This document shows, piece after piece, positions 1 through 26,036 of a stretch of DNA of 26,036 nucleotides. The DNA comes from an uncultured bacterium (lineage in GTDB: Bacteria > CAZSTA01). The stretch's first letter is position 1. Every line of letters begins with the position of its first letter. The translations under genes and the position numbers were made by a program. Under the pieces are notes generated by a model. It was not told where the DNA came from. It ran no database searches and worked only from the letters and a program-made list of their open reading frames with translations. The DNA lies in assembly GCA_964609495.1 (NCBI GenBank), contig CAZSTA010000028.1, positions 1 through 26,036 on the forward strand, written 5' to 3'.

Positions 1-36
1 CTGAATTAATAAGGCTATCAAGGAATCTTGTTAATT

Positions 37-172
37 ATCACCCTCCCCTAACCCCCTCCCATCAAGGGAGGGGGAACTAAAGGGCTTTAGTTCAATCTCA
101 GCGTTCCCTCTCCCCTTGTGGGAGAGGGATAGGGTGAGGGGGAATTATATCTTGGTAAAATCTGCTAGCACG
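37..172 (+). repeat. A-family MITE-like repeat, copy 1. Two perfect 9-bp G/C hairpins (CCCCCTCCC-atcaa-GGGAGGGGG at 52-74; CCCTCTCCC-ttgt-GGGAGAGGG at 106-128), a G4-capable tract at 120-142, and right terminal inverted repeat atctgctagcacg at 160-172
   Basis: The sequence is near-identical to 20934-21047 (the 45-bp 3' core gttccctctcccctYgtgggagagggatagggtgagggggaa is almost perfectly conserved). It is the reverse complement of cgtgctagcagat at 25947-25959. The hairpins were read directly from the sequence. Confidence 0.6.
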
Positions 173-219
173 GGCTTTTACATACCTATTTTTATTCTAA
201 AAATTTTTTGGTTTTACTC

Positions 220-248
220 TTGACTTTTTGTTTGAATTATTGTATATT
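220..248 (+). promoter_or_regulatory. sigma70-type promoter TTGACT-17nt-TATATT upstream of tRNA-Ala
   Basis: -35 TTGACT at 220-225, a 17-nt spacer, and -10 TATATT at 243-248. The mature tRNA 5' end lies about 20 nt downstream. Confidence 0.5.
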
Positions 249-269: not shown

Positions 270-345
270 GGGGACGTAGCTCAGTTGGGAGAGCGCCTGC
301 TTCGCAAGTAGGAGGTCGGCGGTTCGAATCCGCTCGTCTCCACCA
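270..345 (+). tRNA. tRNA-Ala, anticodon CGC, with encoded 3' CCA
   Basis: Manual cloverleaf: acceptor GGGGACG/CGTCTCC with a G3:U70 pair (the alanine identity element), D-arm GCTC-AGTTGGGA-GAGC, anticodon stem CCTGC/GTAGG with loop TTCGCAA (anticodon CGC), variable loop AGGTC, T-arm GGCGG-TTCGAAT-CCGCT, discriminator A, CCA. Total 76 nt. Confidence 0.9.
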
Positions 346-4719: not shown

Positions 4720-6060
4720 TCATCTGACTAATTTATCAAGCACTTCTGCCAACTGACCAGCCAATTTCTTACGACTAAATAGCTCCTCTACCTCGGGGAT
4801 CACCCCCTTATCATCTCCTCCTTTATTCAGGGAGCGAAGCAGTTTGAGTAATTCCTCTTTTATCCCGTTCACATCATCAGGATCTACTGTGATTCCAACC
4901 CCTAACCTGTTTAGAAGCCTTTCTGCTTCCCCATCTTTTTGAGTAATCGCTAGAATTGGCTTGCCAGTTGCTAGATATTCAAATAATTTATTAGTAAGTG
5001 CATATCCCGGCTCTATTATGAGCAATAAGATATCAGCCTCAAGCTGATATCTTATTGCTTCTTCGTATGATACAGTTCCCTTAACATCTACAATATCTCC
5101 CAGTTCCAGTATATAATCCTTAAATCTCTCTTCTACATAGCCTATAAAATTAACTTTAATAACATCTTTAAACTCAGGATTATTTTCGATCAGCTCCTTA
5201 ACAGCACGGAGAAAACTGACCGGACTATGTTCAATACAAAAAGTTCCGGTATAGGTTATCTGAATTTTATCATTACGGGAGAGAGGTTTTTCCGAATTAG
5301 TATGGATCATATTATCTGTCCTAGGAGGAACATAGGACGGATAATCATCAGGATCGAAACCGTTGGTGATAAGCTCATATTTGCTCTTGTTGATAGAAGG
5401 GTACTTATCTCTGAAATCGGAGATCATAGTTTCGGTCACCGCTAGTATCTTATCAGCCGATTTCAAGATACTAAATTCTAAACGCTCCTCGGCATACCTT
5501 CTAAATGTTCCTCTTTCTCTTATCCGAATAGGAAGATGAGCCCAAGGATCTCTAAAATCGACCACTAGGGGACTTCGAGAGAGTCCTTTAAGGCAAGCTC
5601 CGATTATATGATCGGTGAAGGGAGGCGAGGTTGAATATATCACTTTTATCTCCTGATCCCTAATCAGCTTCAACCCTTTAATAACCGCCGAGGGAAACCA
5701 GTATATATGCTCCTCTGGGAAAGATATCTTCCTCTTGATGAGTCGCATAACATCTCTAATCTTCGAGGCAGAAGTAGAGGTGTTGTGAAAGGAATCCTCA
5801 TTGGCCTTCACTGCCGAAGGAGAGCCCCATAGCGAGGGGGTGATGATCTCTTCTAAGGAGAAAGTGCGATTAATCTCTACCTGAGCAGGAAGCTGAAGGA
5901 GCAAGGATTCATCTTTATAATGCACTACATGCTTCCGCACAGTCAGGATTATAGGCTTCCAGCCATACGAGGGTAGGTATTTAGCGAATTTTATGGCTCT
6001 AATCGCCCCAGTTCCTCCAAAAGGAGGGAACATATGGACTATCATTAATACACTTTTCAT
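4720..6060 (-). CDS. GT4-family glycosyltransferase
   Basis: N-terminus MKSVLMIVHMFPPFGGTGA, and a C-terminal EX7E-type region (EADILLLIIEPGYALTNKLFEYLATGKPILA). The ORF track extends upstream to a TTG at 6117, which would overlap the upstream gene by 56 nt. The ATG at 6060 abuts the upstream stop at 6062 and gives a typical GT4 N-terminus. Confidence 0.75.
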   Translation of the reverse strand: MKSVLMIVHMFPPFGGTGAIRAIKFAKYLPSYGWKPIILTVRKHVVHYKDESLLLQLPAQVEINRTFSLEEIITPSLWGSPSAVKANEDSFHNTSTSASKIRDVMRLIKRKISFPEEHIYWFPSAVIKGLKLIRDQEIKVIYSTSPPFTDHIIGACLKGLSRSPLVVDFRDPWAHLPIRIRERGTFRRYAEERLEFSILKSADKILAVTETMISDFRDKYPSINKSKYELITNGFDPDDYPSYVPPRTDNMIHTNSEKPLSRNDKIQITYTGTFCIEHSPVSFLRAVKELIENNPEFKDVIKVNFIGYVEERFKDYILELGDIVDVKGTVSYEEAIRYQLEADILLLIIEPGYALTNKLFEYLATGKPILAITQKDGEAERLLNRLGVGITVDPDDVNGIKEELLKLLRSLNKGGDDKGVIPEVEELFSRKKLAGQLAEVLDKLVR

Positions 6061-6061
6061 A

Positions 6062-7105
6062 TCAACTGATCTTAAGCCTTCTAATTTTTTGCCTAAGGAT
6101 TGCCTCACCGATTCCAAAGAGTCCTTTCAAGCTTCTCTGATATCTCCTCCACTTATCTGCGTAGAAGGAGAATATCTTCTCGGAAGTAATAGCATATAAT
6201 ACGTCAAGTTGAGCTATCTCAAAGCTCAGATAGAATTTATCCATAAAGTAGAAGTTATCAGGAGAGCTATCCTCTCTTAAATCATAATGAACCCAGAAGC
6301 CGGTATCATATTTGGCGATATTTTCCTTAAGGACTGTTATCCCTTCGTTGAATAGCTTCAGGGCTTTTTCGATCCTGGTTACTCGATAATAATCCCAGAT
6401 GCCGAATAATGCCCATATATGTCCATTCATTACGTGGATCAATTCGGTATTCGGATATTCCTCATACCAGATCCCATTTCCAGAGCTATCCGCTACCCCT
6501 CCTTCCTCGATCGGTGTTTCAAGGATACGCATAGCGGCTGAAGCTACTTCGAGGTATCTCTCCTCCCCTGTCAACTGATAAGCTCTGAGAAGGGCGGAGA
6601 TACCTTGTCCCTGAGACATAGCGGATATCCAAGGATATTTCAGGAGGTATGGTTTCCACTCAAAATTATACTCCCACTTCCCATCTCTCTGATTATTGAC
6701 TAGCCAATCTACCTGTCTGATAAATTGGGTGCGACATTCTTCCTCTCCAGTCTTAAGATATAAATTATAGCTCTCCAGCCCGTAGTGAGCGACATAGGCA
6801 GGGTTTATTTGCCTCCCTATCTTTTTATCTTTATCGTTATATACCTCATTATAATCTTCGATAAATACCCCGTTTTTATCGAAGATATATGACTCTCTGC
6901 TGATGCGAAAGACATTTCTTCCTCCCGCGTGAACGTAATAAGGCCCCAAGACCTCACCAGTCAGATTGGAGAAATCCGCTTCCATCAGGGATATTCCTGG
7001 TGGGCTGATATAGTAGCCCTTATAGAGTGCTAACATTTTAGGGGTAAGATAGAGAGCAATTATGGCTATTAAAACTATTAAGAAGATGATAAAATTTAAT
7101 AACAT
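6062..7105 (-). CDS. membrane-anchored (alpha/alpha)6-barrel protein resembling the D-glucuronyl C5-epimerase C-terminal domain / N-acyl-glucosamine 2-epimerase superfamily
   Basis: A single N-terminal TM helix is followed by a ~320-aa soluble domain. The motif WISAMSQGQGISALLRAY is reminiscent of the SAMAQG motif of C5-epimerase-like proteins. It is operonic with the GT4 gene. Confidence 0.35.
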   Translation of the reverse strand: MLLNFIIFLIVLIAIIALYLTPKMLALYKGYYISPPGISLMEADFSNLTGEVLGPYYVHAGGRNVFRISRESYIFDKNGVFIEDYNEVYNDKDKKIGRQINPAYVAHYGLESYNLYLKTGEEECRTQFIRQVDWLVNNQRDGKWEYNFEWKPYLLKYPWISAMSQGQGISALLRAYQLTGEERYLEVASAAMRILETPIEEGGVADSSGNGIWYEEYPNTELIHVMNGHIWALFGIWDYYRVTRIEKALKLFNEGITVLKENIAKYDTGFWVHYDLREDSSPDNFYFMDKFYLSFEIAQLDVLYAITSEKIFSFYADKWRRYQRSLKGLFGIGEAILRQKIRRLKIS

Positions 7106-15273: not shown

Positions 15274-16491
15274 TTGCTCCTCGAGGTAATCTGGATAATA
15301 CTTAACTCGGCAAGAGATGCTTTTATTCAAGTTGGCGTTTGGGTAGCTTTGATGTTGATAATATTCGGTTACATCGAGTATGCAACCAAAGGCAGAATCG
15401 TCGGATCGATACGAAGAGGAAGACGCTGGCAACCTTTAATAGGTGCTTTCTTAGGAGTTACCCCAGGTTGCGGAGGAGCTATCTTCGTTATGCCTCTCTT
15501 CGTCAATGGGACTGTAACCTTCGGGACTGTAATAGCTACTCTGGTAGCTACTATGGGAGATTCTTCGTGGGTGATAATAGCTGGGCTCCCTAAAGATGCC
15601 TTGCTCATTCATACTATACTTTTCGTCAGTGGGATTATCGTTGGTTATATAGTGGATTGGCTAAAGATCGGGATTAATCTAGTTAGACCGGGGAAGGAGA
15701 TAGAGGAAACATCCAGACGACTGGGACAGCAATATGCCCAAGCTGAAAATTCCTCTTTTCATCCTGAAGCTTTCAAATATGAACATTTAGAGTCGACAGA
15801 ACAGGTAGATATACTGCATGCCGCCTCCCACGTTCATCCTGACAGTATCTCCTATAACTTAACCCACAACTTCTATATGGTGATATGGATAGCTTTCTCG
15901 ATAGGCTTCATAATATCCTTCTTCACTCAGCTTCAAATAGCTGCTCCGGAGCAAGTCGATGCCATATTCGGAGGGTTTCCCATCTACAACGTAGTAGGAG
16001 TTGTAGGAACACTGCTGTGTATAATCTGGATGGTATTGAGCGACAAATTTCTCAGAGATGATACTTATGAGCAGGTAGAGGAGAAACTTGAGTCTATGCG
16101 GGAGACTTTGATCCACAGTGCTGAGGAGACCGCCTTTGTAGTAGCTTGGGTAACAGCCGCTTACATAGTATTTGAGCTCTTTCTATACCTAACTAATATC
16201 GACCTGGCATATATAGTTAACCGAGCTGGGATTATATCGGTTATAGCGGCGGCAGCTATAGGGTTGATCCCTGGATGTGGCCCTCAGATAATCACTACTA
16301 GTCTGTATATTAAAGGAGTTATCCCCTTCGCGGCAGTGATCTCTAACGCGCTGAGTCAGGATGGAGATGCGTTATTCCCCCTCTTATCCCTACACCGGAA
16401 ATCGGCTCTATATGCTACGATAATAACTACTATTCCCGCGATAATAATTGGCTGTATCTTCTATCTACTGGGAATAGGGGGCTTTAGGTAA
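15274..16491 (+). CDS. internally duplicated polytopic permease with one P-G-C-G motif per half (TPGCGGAI and IPGCGPQI). It is possibly a metal transporter of the ArsP_2/10TM-exporter type.
   Basis: 405 aa, TTG start with AAAGGAAG RBS. Two homologous hydrophobic halves are separated by a ~90-aa acidic cytoplasmic loop. The stop overlaps the ATG at 16491 of the encapsulin cargo gene. Confidence 0.6.
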   Translation: MLLEVIWIILNSARDAFIQVGVWVALMLIIFGYIEYATKGRIVGSIRRGRRWQPLIGAFLGVTPGCGGAIFVMPLFVNGTVTFGTVIATLVATMGDSSWVIIAGLPKDALLIHTILFVSGIIVGYIVDWLKIGINLVRPGKEIEETSRRLGQQYAQAENSSFHPEAFKYEHLESTEQVDILHAASHVHPDSISYNLTHNFYMVIWIAFSIGFIISFFTQLQIAAPEQVDAIFGGFPIYNVVGVVGTLLCIIWMVLSDKFLRDDTYEQVEEKLESMRETLIHSAEETAFVVAWVTAAYIVFELFLYLTNIDLAYIVNRAGIISVIAAAAIGLIPGCGPQIITTSLYIKGVIPFAAVISNALSQDGDALFPLLSLHRKSALYATIITTIPAIIIGCIFYLLGIGGFR

Positions 16492-16520
16492 TGCTTTCTG
16501 ATTTGGAAGGAGGTGACAAT

Positions 16521-17501
16521 ATGGACGTAGAAAAAGCAATATCCCTCTTAAATAGGGATATCGAATCGGAACATGCCGCTATCATTCAGTATCTCCAGCA
16601 AGCCTATATGATGGGAGAAGGAGAATACGCTTGTGAGATAGAGGCGATAGCTAGGGAGGAGATGAGACATCTCGATTGGTTAGGGGAGAAGGTGGCTGAA
16701 TTAGGAGGTGATCCCAGCATCAAACGGGCTGAGGTGATCTTAGGAGGTCCGGTTAACACTGATATGCTTAAGCAAGACGTTCTATCTGAGGAGATGGCTA
16801 TCTCCGAATACAGGAGACACATAGAGGAGATAGGAGATCCAGAGATCACCAGGCTTATAGAGAGGATCATCGCCGATGAGGAAGCTCACCGCACGATATT
16901 CAGCGATATGATCAAGGAGATCGAGGAAGAGGAGGGAGTTAAAGAGATCGTCCTCAAGGATATGTCCAAGCCGAGGGAGGAGGAGAAGGAAGTCGTCGGG
17001 ATGATGAAGGGTAATATCGACGCTGAGTACACCAATATCTTAAAGTATATACATCAATCCTTCGTAACTGGCGACTGCGAGTTCAGCAGAGATTTAGAGG
17101 AGATAGCTATAGAGGAGATGAAGCATCTCGGTTGGGTCTCAGAGGAGTTACAAGGTATGGGTTTCAAACCCGATATTGAGTATATCGAAGTCGAGCGAAC
17201 TCGCGATGAGGTGGAGATGCTGAAATCCGATATCGAGGGAGAGCGTCGTGCTACCGATCGGTATCAAAAGCAAGTGGAGACCCTTGAAGATCCGAAGCTT
17301 AGGGAGCTTATGGATAGGATTAAACTTCACGAAGTATATCATGGTGAGGATTTCAACGAGTATTTGGAGAAATTCTCCAAGGCTGAGGAAGAAGCAAAAG
17401 AGGCTCCTGCAAAGGTTGAAGAAGCTGAGGAGAAGAAACCCGAATCTCCTGCGGGAAAGCTCACGATAGGAAGTCTATTGGGGAAGGAACAGGGAGAATG
17501 A
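16521..17501 (+). CDS. encapsulin cargo: tandem (double) bacterioferritin/rubrerythrin-like diiron four-helix-bundle protein with C-terminal encapsulin targeting peptide
   Basis: Two full E, ExxH, E, ExxH ligand sets (domain 1: ESEHAAI, EEMRH, SEEMAISEY, DEEAH; domain 2: DAEYTNI, EEMKH, EVEMLKSDIEGE, HEVYH). A Glu/Lys/Ala-rich linker follows, then the C-terminal GKLTIGSLLGKEQGE, which matches the family-1 cargo-loading consensus (L-x-I-G-S-L-x-G). The start with a perfect GGAGGTGA RBS is 16521. The ORF track start at 16491 is in frame and overlaps the upstream stop. Confidence 0.8.
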   Translation: MDVEKAISLLNRDIESEHAAIIQYLQQAYMMGEGEYACEIEAIAREEMRHLDWLGEKVAELGGDPSIKRAEVILGGPVNTDMLKQDVLSEEMAISEYRRHIEEIGDPEITRLIERIIADEEAHRTIFSDMIKEIEEEEGVKEIVLKDMSKPREEEKEVVGMMKGNIDAEYTNILKYIHQSFVTGDCEFSRDLEEIAIEEMKHLGWVSEELQGMGFKPDIEYIEVERTRDEVEMLKSDIEGERRATDRYQKQVETLEDPKLRELMDRIKLHEVYHGEDFNEYLEKFSKAEEEAKEAPAKVEEAEEKKPESPAGKLTIGSLLGKEQGE

Positions 17502-17536
17502 TCGAGCTGATATTTCTAATGAAGGGAGGATAATAA

Positions 17537-18382
17537 ATGGCTGATTATCTAATGAGAGACGAAGCTCCTCTAAGTTCTGAGGAATGGGGAAAGATAGACG
17601 AGACAGTGGTTGAAGTTGCTCAGAAACAATTGGTCGGCAGGCGCTTTATTCCCATCTTTGGACCTATCGGAGCAGGTGTTCAAATGATCGCTAGCGATGT
17701 CTTCGCTGGATTAGGCGAGGGGAAAACCGATGTCTTCGGAGATGAAGCGACCGATCCGATATTATCCAAGGGAAGGAAATATATTACCTTACCTATGATC
17801 TACAAGGATTTCAAGCTCTTCTGGAGGGATATCGAAGCCAGCAAGAAAGCAGGACTTCCCCTTAATATTCAATCAGCGGCAGCGGCCAGTGTTTTTTGTG
17901 CTTACAAAGAGGATGATCTGATATTCAACGGAGATAAGGAGTTCAATTGGGAGGGTCTCCTGAATGTTACTGGGAGGAAAAAGTTGATCTTCAGCGATTG
18001 GAGTATCTCCGGCAATATCTTACAAGATGTGGTGAATGCTACTAAGGAATTGGTAAGCTCTGGTAACTACGGACCTTATGCGATGGTGGTTAATCCCGCG
18101 ATGTATACCCAGATGTTCAGGACATATAAGAATTCAGGAGTTCTGGAGATCAGACATATAAGAGAGCTGGTAACCGCTGGTGTCTATCAATCATCAGCTG
18201 TAACAGATGATAAGGCGGTGGTGGTCTCAGTGGGATCTCAGAACTTCGATCTTGTCATAGGACAGGATCTTGTAACCGCTTATCTGGGACCTGAGAATCT
18301 AAATCATTCCTTCCGAGTCTTCGAGAGCTTAGCCTTGAGGATAAAGCGTCCCGATGCTATCTGCACTTTTGAGAAGAAGTAA
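17537..18382 (+). CDS. family 1 encapsulin shell protein (linocin M18-like, HK97 fold)
   Basis: N-terminus MADYLMRDEAPLSSEEWGKIDETVVEVAQKQLVGRRF parallels T. maritima encapsulin [21 protein letters not shown]...QLYGRKF. It also has GPYAMVVNPAMY, LVIGQDL and FRVFESLALRIKRPDAI blocks, and a GGGAGGA RBS. Confidence 0.9.
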   Translation: MADYLMRDEAPLSSEEWGKIDETVVEVAQKQLVGRRFIPIFGPIGAGVQMIASDVFAGLGEGKTDVFGDEATDPILSKGRKYITLPMIYKDFKLFWRDIEASKKAGLPLNIQSAAAASVFCAYKEDDLIFNGDKEFNWEGLLNVTGRKKLIFSDWSISGNILQDVVNATKELVSSGNYGPYAMVVNPAMYTQMFRTYKNSGVLEIRHIRELVTAGVYQSSAVTDDKAVVVSVGSQNFDLVIGQDLVTAYLGPENLNHSFRVFESLALRIKRPDAICTFEKK

Positions 18383-20783: not shown

Positions 20784-20904
20784 TTTTATAGTTTCAAGAA
20801 GAGGAGAGAATCCTCCCCTCCATATCTTCCACTTTTATAGGAGGGATCTCCCCTTCTAATCCCTTATGTTCAAGTAGTTTCAAAATTTTTTGTCTGAGAT
20901 GTTC

Positions 20905-21082
20905 GAGATCGGATTAGACCTTGAACTCATATAAATCACCCTCCCGTCAAGGGAGGGGAAAATAGAAAGATCAGTTCTATCTGGATGTTCCCTCTCCCCT
21001 CGTGGGAGAGGGATAGGGTGAGGGGGAAATTATTTCTTTCGCTCATTAGATTAGTCTAGCGCACCTTATGCGGATATGAGCG
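20905..21082 (+). repeat. A-family MITE-like repeat, copy 2 (core 20934-21047), with degenerate ends. Hairpins CCCTCCC-gtcaa-GGGAGGG and CCCTCTCCC-ctcgt-GGGAGAGGG. G4-capable tract at 21004-21026.
   Basis: Near-identity of the 3' core to 96-147. The flanks retain diverged versions of the terminal sequences (taaatcaccc on the left; tctagcgcac on the right). Confidence 0.55.
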
Positions 21083-21113
21083 AATCCCTTATATTTGAAA
21101 AGGAGGATTTATT

Positions 21114-22070
21114 ATGTCTTATGCGGAGAGGATAAAGGAGATAGAGAGAGGTTTAAAACAAGGTATAAGGGTTGAAAAGTTCTCTTTGGATCTTGATCAC
21201 CTGGGTCCTGGGGAGAAGAGGAGATTATACGAGTTTATGTATGCCCATGGCCCTGGCAATGGGAAGATGTTGTTTCTTCCTATCGATCAAGGGGTGGAGC
21301 ATGGCCCCAGCGATTTCTTTCCCAATCCTCCTAGCGTTGATTTCGATTTCCAACTGGCTCTTGCTGAGGAGGGAGGGTATTCGGGTATAGTTTGTCATAT
21401 AGGCTTAGCGGAGAAACATATGAAGAAGTTCGCGGGCAGAGTTCCTCTGATTCTGAAGATCAACGGTAAGACTAACATCCCCTCCGATGAGGAGGCTTTC
21501 TCAGCTCTGGATGCAACGGTGGAGGATGCAGTCAGACTCGGAGCGGATGCTATCGGTTATACCCTCTATGTTGGTTCTCCAAGTCAAGATCGAGACTTCG
21601 TCCAATTTATGCAGGTCAGACAGGAAGCTAAAAGATATGGAATGCCAGCTATTATGTGGGCTTATCCGAGAGGAAAATATGTCGAGGAAAAAGGCGGGCG
21701 GGATTCCTTAGCTATGGTTCATTATGCGGCTAGAATCGCTAACGAGTTGGGAGCAACCTTAGTTAAGATAAATCAACCCAAGGCTCCTAAGGGGGGCGAA
21801 TATACCGATAAGTTCTTCGGCAAATACAACCAATATAAGGACCTTGATGATCAGACCTCCCTCAATATGGCGGTTCAAGCGGCGGGAAGGACTGGCGTAT
21901 TAGTCTCTGGAGGAAGTAAGATCAGCGATGAGGATCTCCTGAACAAAGCTGAGGCTTCCTTAAAGGCTGGAGTCGATGGCTTGATCTTCGGAAGGAATAT
22001 GTGGCAGCGAAAGTTTGAGGATGCGCTTGAGATAACCAGAGAGATCAAGAAGATGATGCAAGAGTTCTAG
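21114..22070 (+). CDS. class I fructose-bisphosphate aldolase of the DhnA/FbaB (archaeal-type) family. An ADH-synthase-like paralog cannot be excluded.
   Basis: 318 aa with the N-terminal pattern IRVEKFSLDLDHLGPGEKRRL...LFLPIDQGVEHGP characteristic of DhnA-type TIM-barrel aldolases. The Schiff-base lysine region is LVKINQPK. RBS AAGGAGGA. Confidence 0.7.
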   Translation: MSYAERIKEIERGLKQGIRVEKFSLDLDHLGPGEKRRLYEFMYAHGPGNGKMLFLPIDQGVEHGPSDFFPNPPSVDFDFQLALAEEGGYSGIVCHIGLAEKHMKKFAGRVPLILKINGKTNIPSDEEAFSALDATVEDAVRLGADAIGYTLYVGSPSQDRDFVQFMQVRQEAKRYGMPAIMWAYPRGKYVEEKGGRDSLAMVHYAARIANELGATLVKINQPKAPKGGEYTDKFFGKYNQYKDLDDQTSLNMAVQAAGRTGVLVSGGSKISDEDLLNKAEASLKAGVDGLIFGRNMWQRKFEDALEITREIKKMMQEF

Positions 22071-25825: not shown

Positions 25826-25890
25826 AAGGGTGTAAAGGAAACTTTTTTACCTTGAGTTTTGTTGCCGGCGAAGGTCTCCTTTATTTGAAC
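25826..25890 (-). repeat. B-family repeat, partial copy 3 (reverse orientation), upstream of the minus-strand wHTH gene
   Basis: The reverse complement ...ataaaggagaccttcgccggcaacaaaactcaaggtaaaaaagtttcc aligns with the B2 core ataaaggaaggaaatttttgccggcaataaaactcaagcgaaaagggaac. Confidence 0.45.
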
Positions 25891-25946
25891 AATTCTCCCT
25901 GAAACTTTTTTGAAACTACTTAATGAGATGTAAGCATGTAGAATAT

Positions 25947-26036
25947 CGTGCTAGCAGATTTGGATTTGAATTTCCTTAAATCACCCTCCCCTAGCCCCTC
26001 CCGTCTTGGTTTTTGCTGAATTAATAAGGCTATCAA
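25947..26036 (+). repeat. left end of the A-family element: terminal inverted repeat cgtgctagcagat (25947-25959) plus a partial 5' core (atcaccctcccctagcccctcccgtc). The last 21 nt are identical to window positions 1-21.
   Basis: cgtgctagcagat is the exact reverse complement of atctgctagcacg at 160-172. Joining the window ends through the 21-nt overlap gives a 241-bp element bounded by 13-bp TIRs. Confidence 0.5.

Follow-up and report, generated by a model that had tools for sequence, protein, structure and literature searches.

The dispersed G/C-rich repeat of this uncultured bacterium is almost certainly, judging from its sequence, the BoxC/PIT/TMECO intrastrand triplex motif, i.e., an old repeat in a new host. 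It was found in the window, by which we mean the whole stretch of 26,036 nucleotides analysed here (contig CAZSTA010000028.1 of assembly GCA_964609495.1), where two units, at 106-142 and 20990-21026, match the TMECO pattern CCCTCNCCC-N3-6-GGGNGAGGG-N3-GGGNGAGGG exactly. The best overall explanation, and one that we hold to be quite probable, is that the window carries a lineage form of BoxC/PIT/TMECO, made of selfish or neutral doublets that spread and are reshuffled. Taken as found, this result extends a decades-old E. coli repeat to one more host, an uncultured anaerobe, which matters little; the occurrence of non-coding TMECO-type units across phyla, on the other hand, has to be explained by horizontal spread or by a strong constraint common to the hosts.

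Anatomy, identity and triplex geometry of the repeat

The basic unit is about 37 nt long and is formed by a 9-bp hairpin between a C-arm and a G-arm, a 3-nt loop and a G-rich tail (Table 1). In copy A, two such units are inverted with their tails pointing outward and with a 31-nt spacer between them, the left one being a variant triplex-motif unit with a perfect 9-bp hairpin. Since its two units are inverted, copy A as a whole takes the shape of a single long, imperfect hairpin (-66 kcal/mol, z -3.7 and -5.6). Copy B folds as two local hairpins; its left unit is short of about 12 nt between GGGAGGG repeats and has a hairpin of 7 bp, and similarity in the flanks of this copy reaches as far as ~20868 and ~21087. 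Copy C is half a unit only, a truncated form also seen in L121 (L numbers designate the loci fetched for comparison). Copies A and B have an exact 27-mer in common and form the repeat pairs D1 (56 nt, 89%) and D16 (26 nt, 88%). None of the window copies falls within an ORF of 60 aa or more, and they are thus intergenic.

Table 1. Coordinates and sequences of the repeat copies, their flanks and the neighbouring features of the window.
Feature	Position	Strand	Details
Copy A	38-142		element of ~105 nt, inverted pair of ~37-nt units
Copy A left unit	38-74	-	CCCCCTCCC-ttgat-GGGAGGGGG-tta-GGGGAGGG(TGA), minus-strand reading
Copy A left unit, plus-strand layout			tail' TCACCCTCCCC 38-48, taa, CCCCCTCCC 52-60, atcaa, GGGAGGGGG 66-74
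Copy A spacer	75-105		aactaaagggctttagttcaatctcagcgtt, kept within the lineage
Copy A right unit	106-142	+	CCCTCTCCC 106-114, cttgt, GGGAGAGGG 120-128, ata, GGGTGAGGG 132-140, GG
Right arm of the 31-nt inverted repeat	158-188	-	perfect core 158-172
Promoter-like site	220-248	+	TTGACT-17-TATATT, upstream neighbour of tRNA-Ala(CGC)
tRNA-Ala(CGC)	270-345	+	
Copy B left flank module	20868-20935	+	begins with GTTCAAGTAGTTTCAA
Copy B	20936-21026		
Copy B shortened left unit	20936-20958	-	TCACCCTCCC-gtcaa-GGGAGGGG
Copy B right unit	20990-21026	+	canonical TMECO/BoxC unit, ATA loop
Copy B right flank module	21027-21082	+	ends with ...CGGATATGAGCG; homologous to the right end of the L123 element
Class I aldolase gene	21114-22070		
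Junction-copy left arm	25931-25961	+	
Junction-copy left module	25962-25980	+	
Copy C half unit	25981-26002	-	TCACCCTCCCCTAGCCCCTCCC, complementary arm absent, then gtcttgg
Sequence marking the doublet			TCACCCTCCCCTARCCCCTCCC
Candidate element-end sequences			ATTTAAGTAGTTTCAA, CGCTCATATT, TAAGCATGTAGAATATCGTGCTAGCAGATTT
Predicted empty allele, L123 site			TATAATtccaatcgataAATCCGATTAAGGAG
Predicted empty allele, copy B site			ccttctAATCCCTTATATTTGAAAAGGAGG

An earlier sequence-only reading of this DNA had described two full copies and a partial one, and these were found in place as copies A, B and C: the pattern CCCTCYCCC-N5-GGGRGAGGG, with up to two mismatches, gave three matches in the window against 0.00 expected from 100 shuffles. 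The G-quadruplex-capable run G3N3G3N3G3N3G5 is likewise present, at 120-142 and 21004-21026. As for the two perfect 9-bp all-G/C hairpins, copy A does have 9 bp, but each hairpin contains one or two A-T pairs and the first hairpin of copy B is shorter, as mentioned above. What had to be given up is the claim of a novel family, given that the core is the published TMECO/BoxC/PIT pattern, with its G-quadruplex (G4) reading also published (PMC4666352, PMC5100583), and that a BoxC-type unit occurs in every one of the 5,426 complete E. coli genomes (median 17 places) besides more than 118 genome loci among the matches listed for a 30-specified-base version of the unit. The architecture is not new either, since inverted pairs of two unit types have been published for E. 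coli, and the flgH-flgG doublet of E. coli 042 can be aligned to copy A along 103 nt, with the same tail-out arrangement.

The motif was named first BoxC and later PIT element, and Holder et al. 2015 surveyed it in 262 genomes, counting it in Proteobacteria (PMC4666352). In E. coli K-12 there are 23 TMECO units, all intergenic, with five inverted pairs that in every case mix two unit types, and the loci of the motif are unusually variable from strain to strain (PMC4666352). The isolated E. coli strand forms a triplex in vitro according to CD and NMR of oligonucleotides, with NMR of the full unit favouring triplex over G4, and no triplex was detected in vivo by DMS footprints (PMC4666352). Kaplan et al. 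2016 gave the same BoxC/PIT/TMECO sequence its G4 reading under the names HPG1/HPG2, and proposed it as a G-quadruplex-hairpin-duplex regulatory switch in E. coli (PMC5100583).

The geometry of the units bears on what has been kept in them. We scored the tails of 28 distinct variant units of at least nine stem types, taken from the fetched loci, against both the mirror and the direct copy of the G-arm. An antiparallel purine-motif triplex needs a mirror repeat, and the alternative Watson-Crick hairpin needs a direct copy. The mirror fitted better in 24 of the 28 and worse in none, with four ties, and the mean tail score was 8.75/9 for the mirror and 6.86/9 for the direct copy (p about 1e-7, a value that overstates independence because the variant units are partly related by descent, with the nine stem types nevertheless in agreement). 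The canonical window units give 9/9 triads, and the left unit of copy A, with its TTA loop, gives 8/8 once an extra G-C pair at the stem foot is set aside. The tail thus mirrors the G-arm across stem types, so it is geometry that is kept and not G-richness alone, and this mirror covariation is evidence at the sequence level for the upkeep of a triplex-type geometry. The isolated G-rich strand would fold back as a purine-motif triplex or, otherwise, as a G-quadruplex. The motif is reportedly credited also to Bachellier et al. (1990s) and to Hoyne, Maher et al. 2000.

A regulatory switch of the kind proposed for the E. coli motif (PMC5100583), in which G-quadruplex, hairpin and duplex forms of non-B DNA would tune the transcription of tRNA-Ala and the aldolase, has in its favour that G4 motifs lie on the coding strand ahead of both genes, ~80-100 nt before the tRNA promoter-like site and ~90 nt before the aldolase start. 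We consider it very improbable, given that 130 units placed against genes showed no preference in orientation or distance (47 tails towards a gene start and 47 towards a stop; also 42 vs. 55), in agreement with the E. coli work, where the motif had no orientation preference relative to genes, where neither promoter nor terminator activity was found experimentally, and where the triplex prevailed over G4 (PMC4666352). Neither for the tRNA-Ala promoter-like site nor for the aldolase gene do we therefore find support for regulation by the element, whose location upstream of both would rather be a tolerated intergenic insertion. The same counts led us to reject the G-rich tail as a Shine-Dalgarno sequence or pointer to gene starts.

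The window itself has a GC content of ~43%, and its genes are housekeeping and oxidative-stress genes; besides those of Table 1, they include a peroxiredoxin, a flavodiiron protein, rubrerythrins, an encapsulin operon, SufC and SufB/D. Within the oxidative-stress gene cluster, the encapsulin (Linocin_M18) gene lies directly 3' of an ORF with ferritin/rubrerythrin-like sequence repeats (16491-18382 for the two together); the product of this ORF is likely, from its sequence, to be the encapsulin cargo. Inside a glycosyltransferase ORF of the minus strand (4720-6117) we observed a palindrome of 17 perfectly matched bp around a 5-nt loop (AGCAATAAGATATCAGC / GCTGATATCTTATTGCT, 5021-5059), which is unusual for a coding sequence. 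Another dispersed hairpin repeat (taaaggaaac...gccggc...ctccttta), with no relation to the triplex-motif units, occurs at 25833-25886 and 2752-2793 of the window, mutually inverted, and three times in L120 (617-652, 1537-1587 and 2851-2889).

Copies in the lineage and distribution across phyla

A metagenome scan with the ATA-loop unit gave ten contigs, half of them belonging to the series of samples Ga0315544/Ga0315545. One sample of this same series and a Logan run also contain the window encapsulin as an identical protein, and exact look-ups of the window proteins returned only two ~1-kb encapsulin contigs on record; the runs tied to the series holding this population are SRR9705733 and SRR9706179. 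At least six further copies of the repeat (L119-L123 and L127) are present at other loci in related metagenome contigs, from the same or a closely related population. The sequence-only reading had named a local duplication as the outcome to expect if the window copies were the only ones, and this is not what was found.

These lineage copies also point to the extent of what is copied. L119 matches window 37-144 at 96% identity (108 nt, spacer included) with unrelated flanks, and in L120, L121, L122, L123 and L127 the doublet and a recognisable spacer are again held in common while the flanks differ. The only part common to all copies is thus a doublet of ~108 nt with sharp boundaries, and being their common denominator it is likely, on these alignments, to be the unit copied between loci. 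The flanks, in turn, are mosaic: window 20869-20927, in the left flank of copy B, is 95% identical to L121, and L123 is 87% identical to window 20939-21087. With a left flank of the L127/L121 type and a right end shared with L123, copy B has the appearance of a chimera in which two shells meet at the doublet.

Beyond this lineage, the taxa matched by the 30-base version of the unit include Enterobacteriaceae, Azospirillum, Nitrospirota, Planctomycetota, Elusimicrobiota, Chloroflexota, Omnitrophota, Desulfobacterota, Dormiibacterota and others. In three loci of Nitrospirota/Thermodesulfovibrionia (L003, L058 and L072), the pairing of the two unit types is identical to that in the window, and among 116 canonical units an inverted partner within 150 nt was found for 39 and a direct partner for five. 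Among loci L001-L118 of the genome scan, exact TMECO-type units were also observed in anammox Planctomycetota and in Gastranaerophilales, outside the Proteobacteria surveyed in 2015.

With regard to vehicles, the unit is carried by plasmids in 432 records, 110 of which are conjugative. Viruses were rejected as vehicles, given the near-absence of the unit from viral contigs (8 of 2.9 million) and phage records (3 of 50,697). Two E. coli loci were compared in their filled and empty forms. At flgH-flgG (L143 vs. L144/L145), the BoxC-free allele holds a REP element instead, with the whole intergenic cassette replaced, and at adk-hemH (L159 vs. L160/L161) it is another hairpin that replaces the whole cassette; in both, the borders are sharp and lie beside the flanking genes. 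No clean insertion footprint was found at these two loci, and with the whole cassette replaced at both, transposition of the unit is nowhere demonstrated.

Contig ends, terminal inverted repeats and the mode of spread

The first 21 nt of the window (1-21) are identical to the last (26016-26036), so the contig closes on itself, and joining its ends gives a junction copy of 241 bp, which must be taken as provisional because it rests on that 21-nt identity. The 21-mer is absent from all other fetched loci. That the bacterium has a 26-kb circle of housekeeping genes only is unlikely; the overlap may possibly come from a tandem duplication, from excision of a circle or from a wrong join by way of two element copies. 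A plain k=21 graph artefact was also considered as its source and is unlikely because the contig passes through an exact repeat of 27 nt, although repeat resolution by paired ends is possible.

The end overlap in a repeat-rich region could suggest that the repeat as a whole is a local duplication or an assembly artefact confined to this contig, all the more so when related assemblies break at the element. We give this practically no credit, since the doublet is present at other loci in independent assemblies from other samples and the unit in thousands of finished genomes, and for the repeat itself, leaving the end-to-end join aside, an artefact is refuted by both. Independent assemblies of the related population were seen to end exactly at or inside the element (L146 1-10 and L148 1-75), which makes these repeats a systematic source of broken contigs in this organism.

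With the ends joined, the junction copy has a perfect terminal inverted repeat (TIR) of 15 nt (25947-25961 / 158-172) inside a 31-nt inverted repeat at 81% (pair I2, 25931-25961 / 158-188), and perfect inverted repeats of at least 13 nt within 300 nt are expected by chance 0.17 times per window. The 241-bp, TIR-bounded element of the sequence-only reading thus exists as described, but only as far as the provisional join holds. Its conservation elsewhere is partial: L122 keeps the left arm, with 97% identity over 25931-25992 and a similarity that starts exactly at the arm's outer edge, but lacks the right arm, of which no second copy was found in any fetched locus. Other copies have TIRs of their own. 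In L127, a perfect 16-nt TIR, ATTTAAGTAGTTTCAA, surrounds a 237-nt composite (866-881 / 1087-1102); the same 16-mer is found in L121 (1047-1062) and, with two mismatches, opens the left flank of copy B (20868-20883). This 16-mer was also observed inverted at 25910-25925, ~5 kb from 20868-20883, with the genes from the aldolase to a wHTH gene in between. The L123 element ends in CGCTCATATT/AATATGAGCG, with the 8-nt direct repeat AATCCGAT on either side (251-258 and 462-469); it is preceded by a perfect promoter, TTGACA-18-TATAAT, and followed by the RBS of the gene downstream. There are, therefore, at least three kinds of TIR shell around one core, those of the junction copy, L127 and L123.

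Direct repeats also flank copy B, where the 10-nt AATCCCTTAT (family D6) adjoins both ends (20858-20867 and 21083-21092). When the element and one repeat copy are removed from these sites, compact promoter-RBS junctions are restored. Yet this motif (AATCC...) also follows a third, partial right-end module (2891-2949), located upstream of the 2954 ORF and succeeded by AATCCCTTATATT (motif copy 2913-2925), and may therefore belong to the module and not be a target duplication; in L127 no flanking direct repeat was found. Empty sites were searched for at two loci: none was found at the aldolase locus, whose closest homologues are 76-78% identical and not syntenic, nor for L123 in a search with its downstream gene, where the contigs of the identical and of the 91% homologue start inside or right after the element.

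The MITE-like nature claimed by the sequence-only reading is, in consequence, supported in part. The elements are small, non-coding, intergenic and present in multiple copies, some within TIR shells, but these shells are of three different kinds, the 13-bp TIR first described is not conserved, and the flanking duplications are ambiguous. A genuine MITE would be a cut-and-paste transposon of ~240-270 bp with cgtgctagcagat TIRs and a transposase elsewhere, for which the hairpins were cargo. Such an origin would account for an inverted repeat with a chance expectation of 0.17 per window, for the left arm's outer edge coinciding with the start of the L122 similarity, for the separate TIRs of L127 and L123 and for the direct repeat at both ends of copy B. 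It seems unlikely to us, since the TIR of the junction copy recurs in full in no other fetched locus, three unrelated TIR types surround one core, L119 has only the 108-nt doublet in common, the AATCC... repeat and L127 leave target duplication ambiguous in the way just described, the junction copy needs joined contig ends, and no transposase (nor replication, partition or integrase gene) was found in the window.

The position of the elements relative to genes has another possible reading, at the RNA level, namely, hairpins in untranslated regions that shield the ends of mRNAs or undergo processing, in the manner of REP or Correia elements. The genes on either side of copy B are co-directional, transcription of the L123 element follows from its place between a consensus promoter and an RBS, and the folds are strong. 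Nonetheless, a role in RNA is improbable: over the window, only the tRNA passes the Rfam gathering score and the repeat matches no family, with permissive thresholds giving only sub-threshold matches to generic hairpin miRNA models; a plus-strand T-tract terminator is absent; both orientations are equally frequent; and the conserved mirror repeat serves a purine-motif triplex of DNA, which cannot form in RNA (PMC4666352).

We thus return to the lineage form of BoxC/PIT/TMECO and to how it may have been dispersed. The elements would be repeats that encode nothing, are selfish or neutral, persist between genes and spread as single-strand-structured doublets through an agent acting in trans, with a logic like that of REPINs; recombination at the conserved core would then reshuffle the doublets with neighbouring short repeats, giving rise to mosaic and at times TIR-bounded shells, and to broken assemblies. 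This dispersal by a trans-acting agent with later reshuffling is a tentative proposal that we consider possible yet short of an even chance, and the TIR shells and the flanking repeats AATCCCTTAT and AATCCGAT would fit cut-and-paste MITEs better. There is also some chance, albeit a low one, that the doublet is the core of truly transposing, TIR-bounded elements that insert between promoter and RBS with target duplications of 8-10 bp, as L123 and copy B might be. If so, these would give the first concrete handle on the movement of BoxC/PIT and on its spread across phyla, a question that dates from the 1990s, no link to a mobile element having emerged from the work on E. coli. With doublets in TIR-bearing shells and broken assemblies, this MAG is a reasonable place to seek the mobilisation mechanism.

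Comparison with known repeat systems

The elements resemble Correia/NEMIS, ERIC and RUP in being non-coding and 100-270 bp long, with some copies bounded by TIRs, placed between promoter and RBS and co-transcribed with their neighbours. They differ in that the TIRs vary here from copy to copy, the conserved part being the internal doublet and not the ends, in the ambiguity of the flanking direct repeats as target-site duplications, and in that no parent IS is known.

REPINs are inverted doublets of REPs moved by RAYT transposases, and REPs are species-specific sequences with a GTAG or GTGG head. With REPIN/BIME our elements share a replicating unit made of two inverted halves and a short spacer (96% over the 108 nt of L119 and copy A), decayed singletons, the potential for long hairpins, a strictly intergenic location and a mosaic mixing with other short motifs. 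In contrast, the window doublets have no GTAG/GTGG head 5' of the stem, GTGG being found only in the loop, and loop 1 varies freely across the family; moreover, the two units of a pair differ in type, BoxC-type units are near-identical across phyla as opposed to species-specific, we know of no RAYT linked to BoxC, and none was found in the window.

The HPG1/HPG2 description shares with our units the GGGAGAGGG-NNN-GGGTGAGGG run, a conserved C-rich 5' flank and the pairs on opposite strands, and differs in the middle loop, which in the window is ATA; position and orientation, here and in the wider sample, give no support to its regulatory role. It is with BoxC/PIT/TMECO as such that the likeness is closest in kind: an exact fit to the pattern, an intergenic location in multiple copies that code for nothing, the pairing of two unit types in inverted orientation, tails outward, a mirror-repeat tail compatible with a purine-motif triplex and no orientation bias relative to genes. 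By sequence comparison with E. coli BoxC, the lineage-specific parts are the ATA of loop 2 (TTA and CCG in E. coli types A and B), the partner unit with its CCCCCTCCC/GGGAGGGGG stem, the conserved ~30-nt spacer and the mosaic of flanking modules, all of this in an uncultured anaerobe of ~43% GC, whereas the survey of 262 genomes counted the motif in Proteobacteria.
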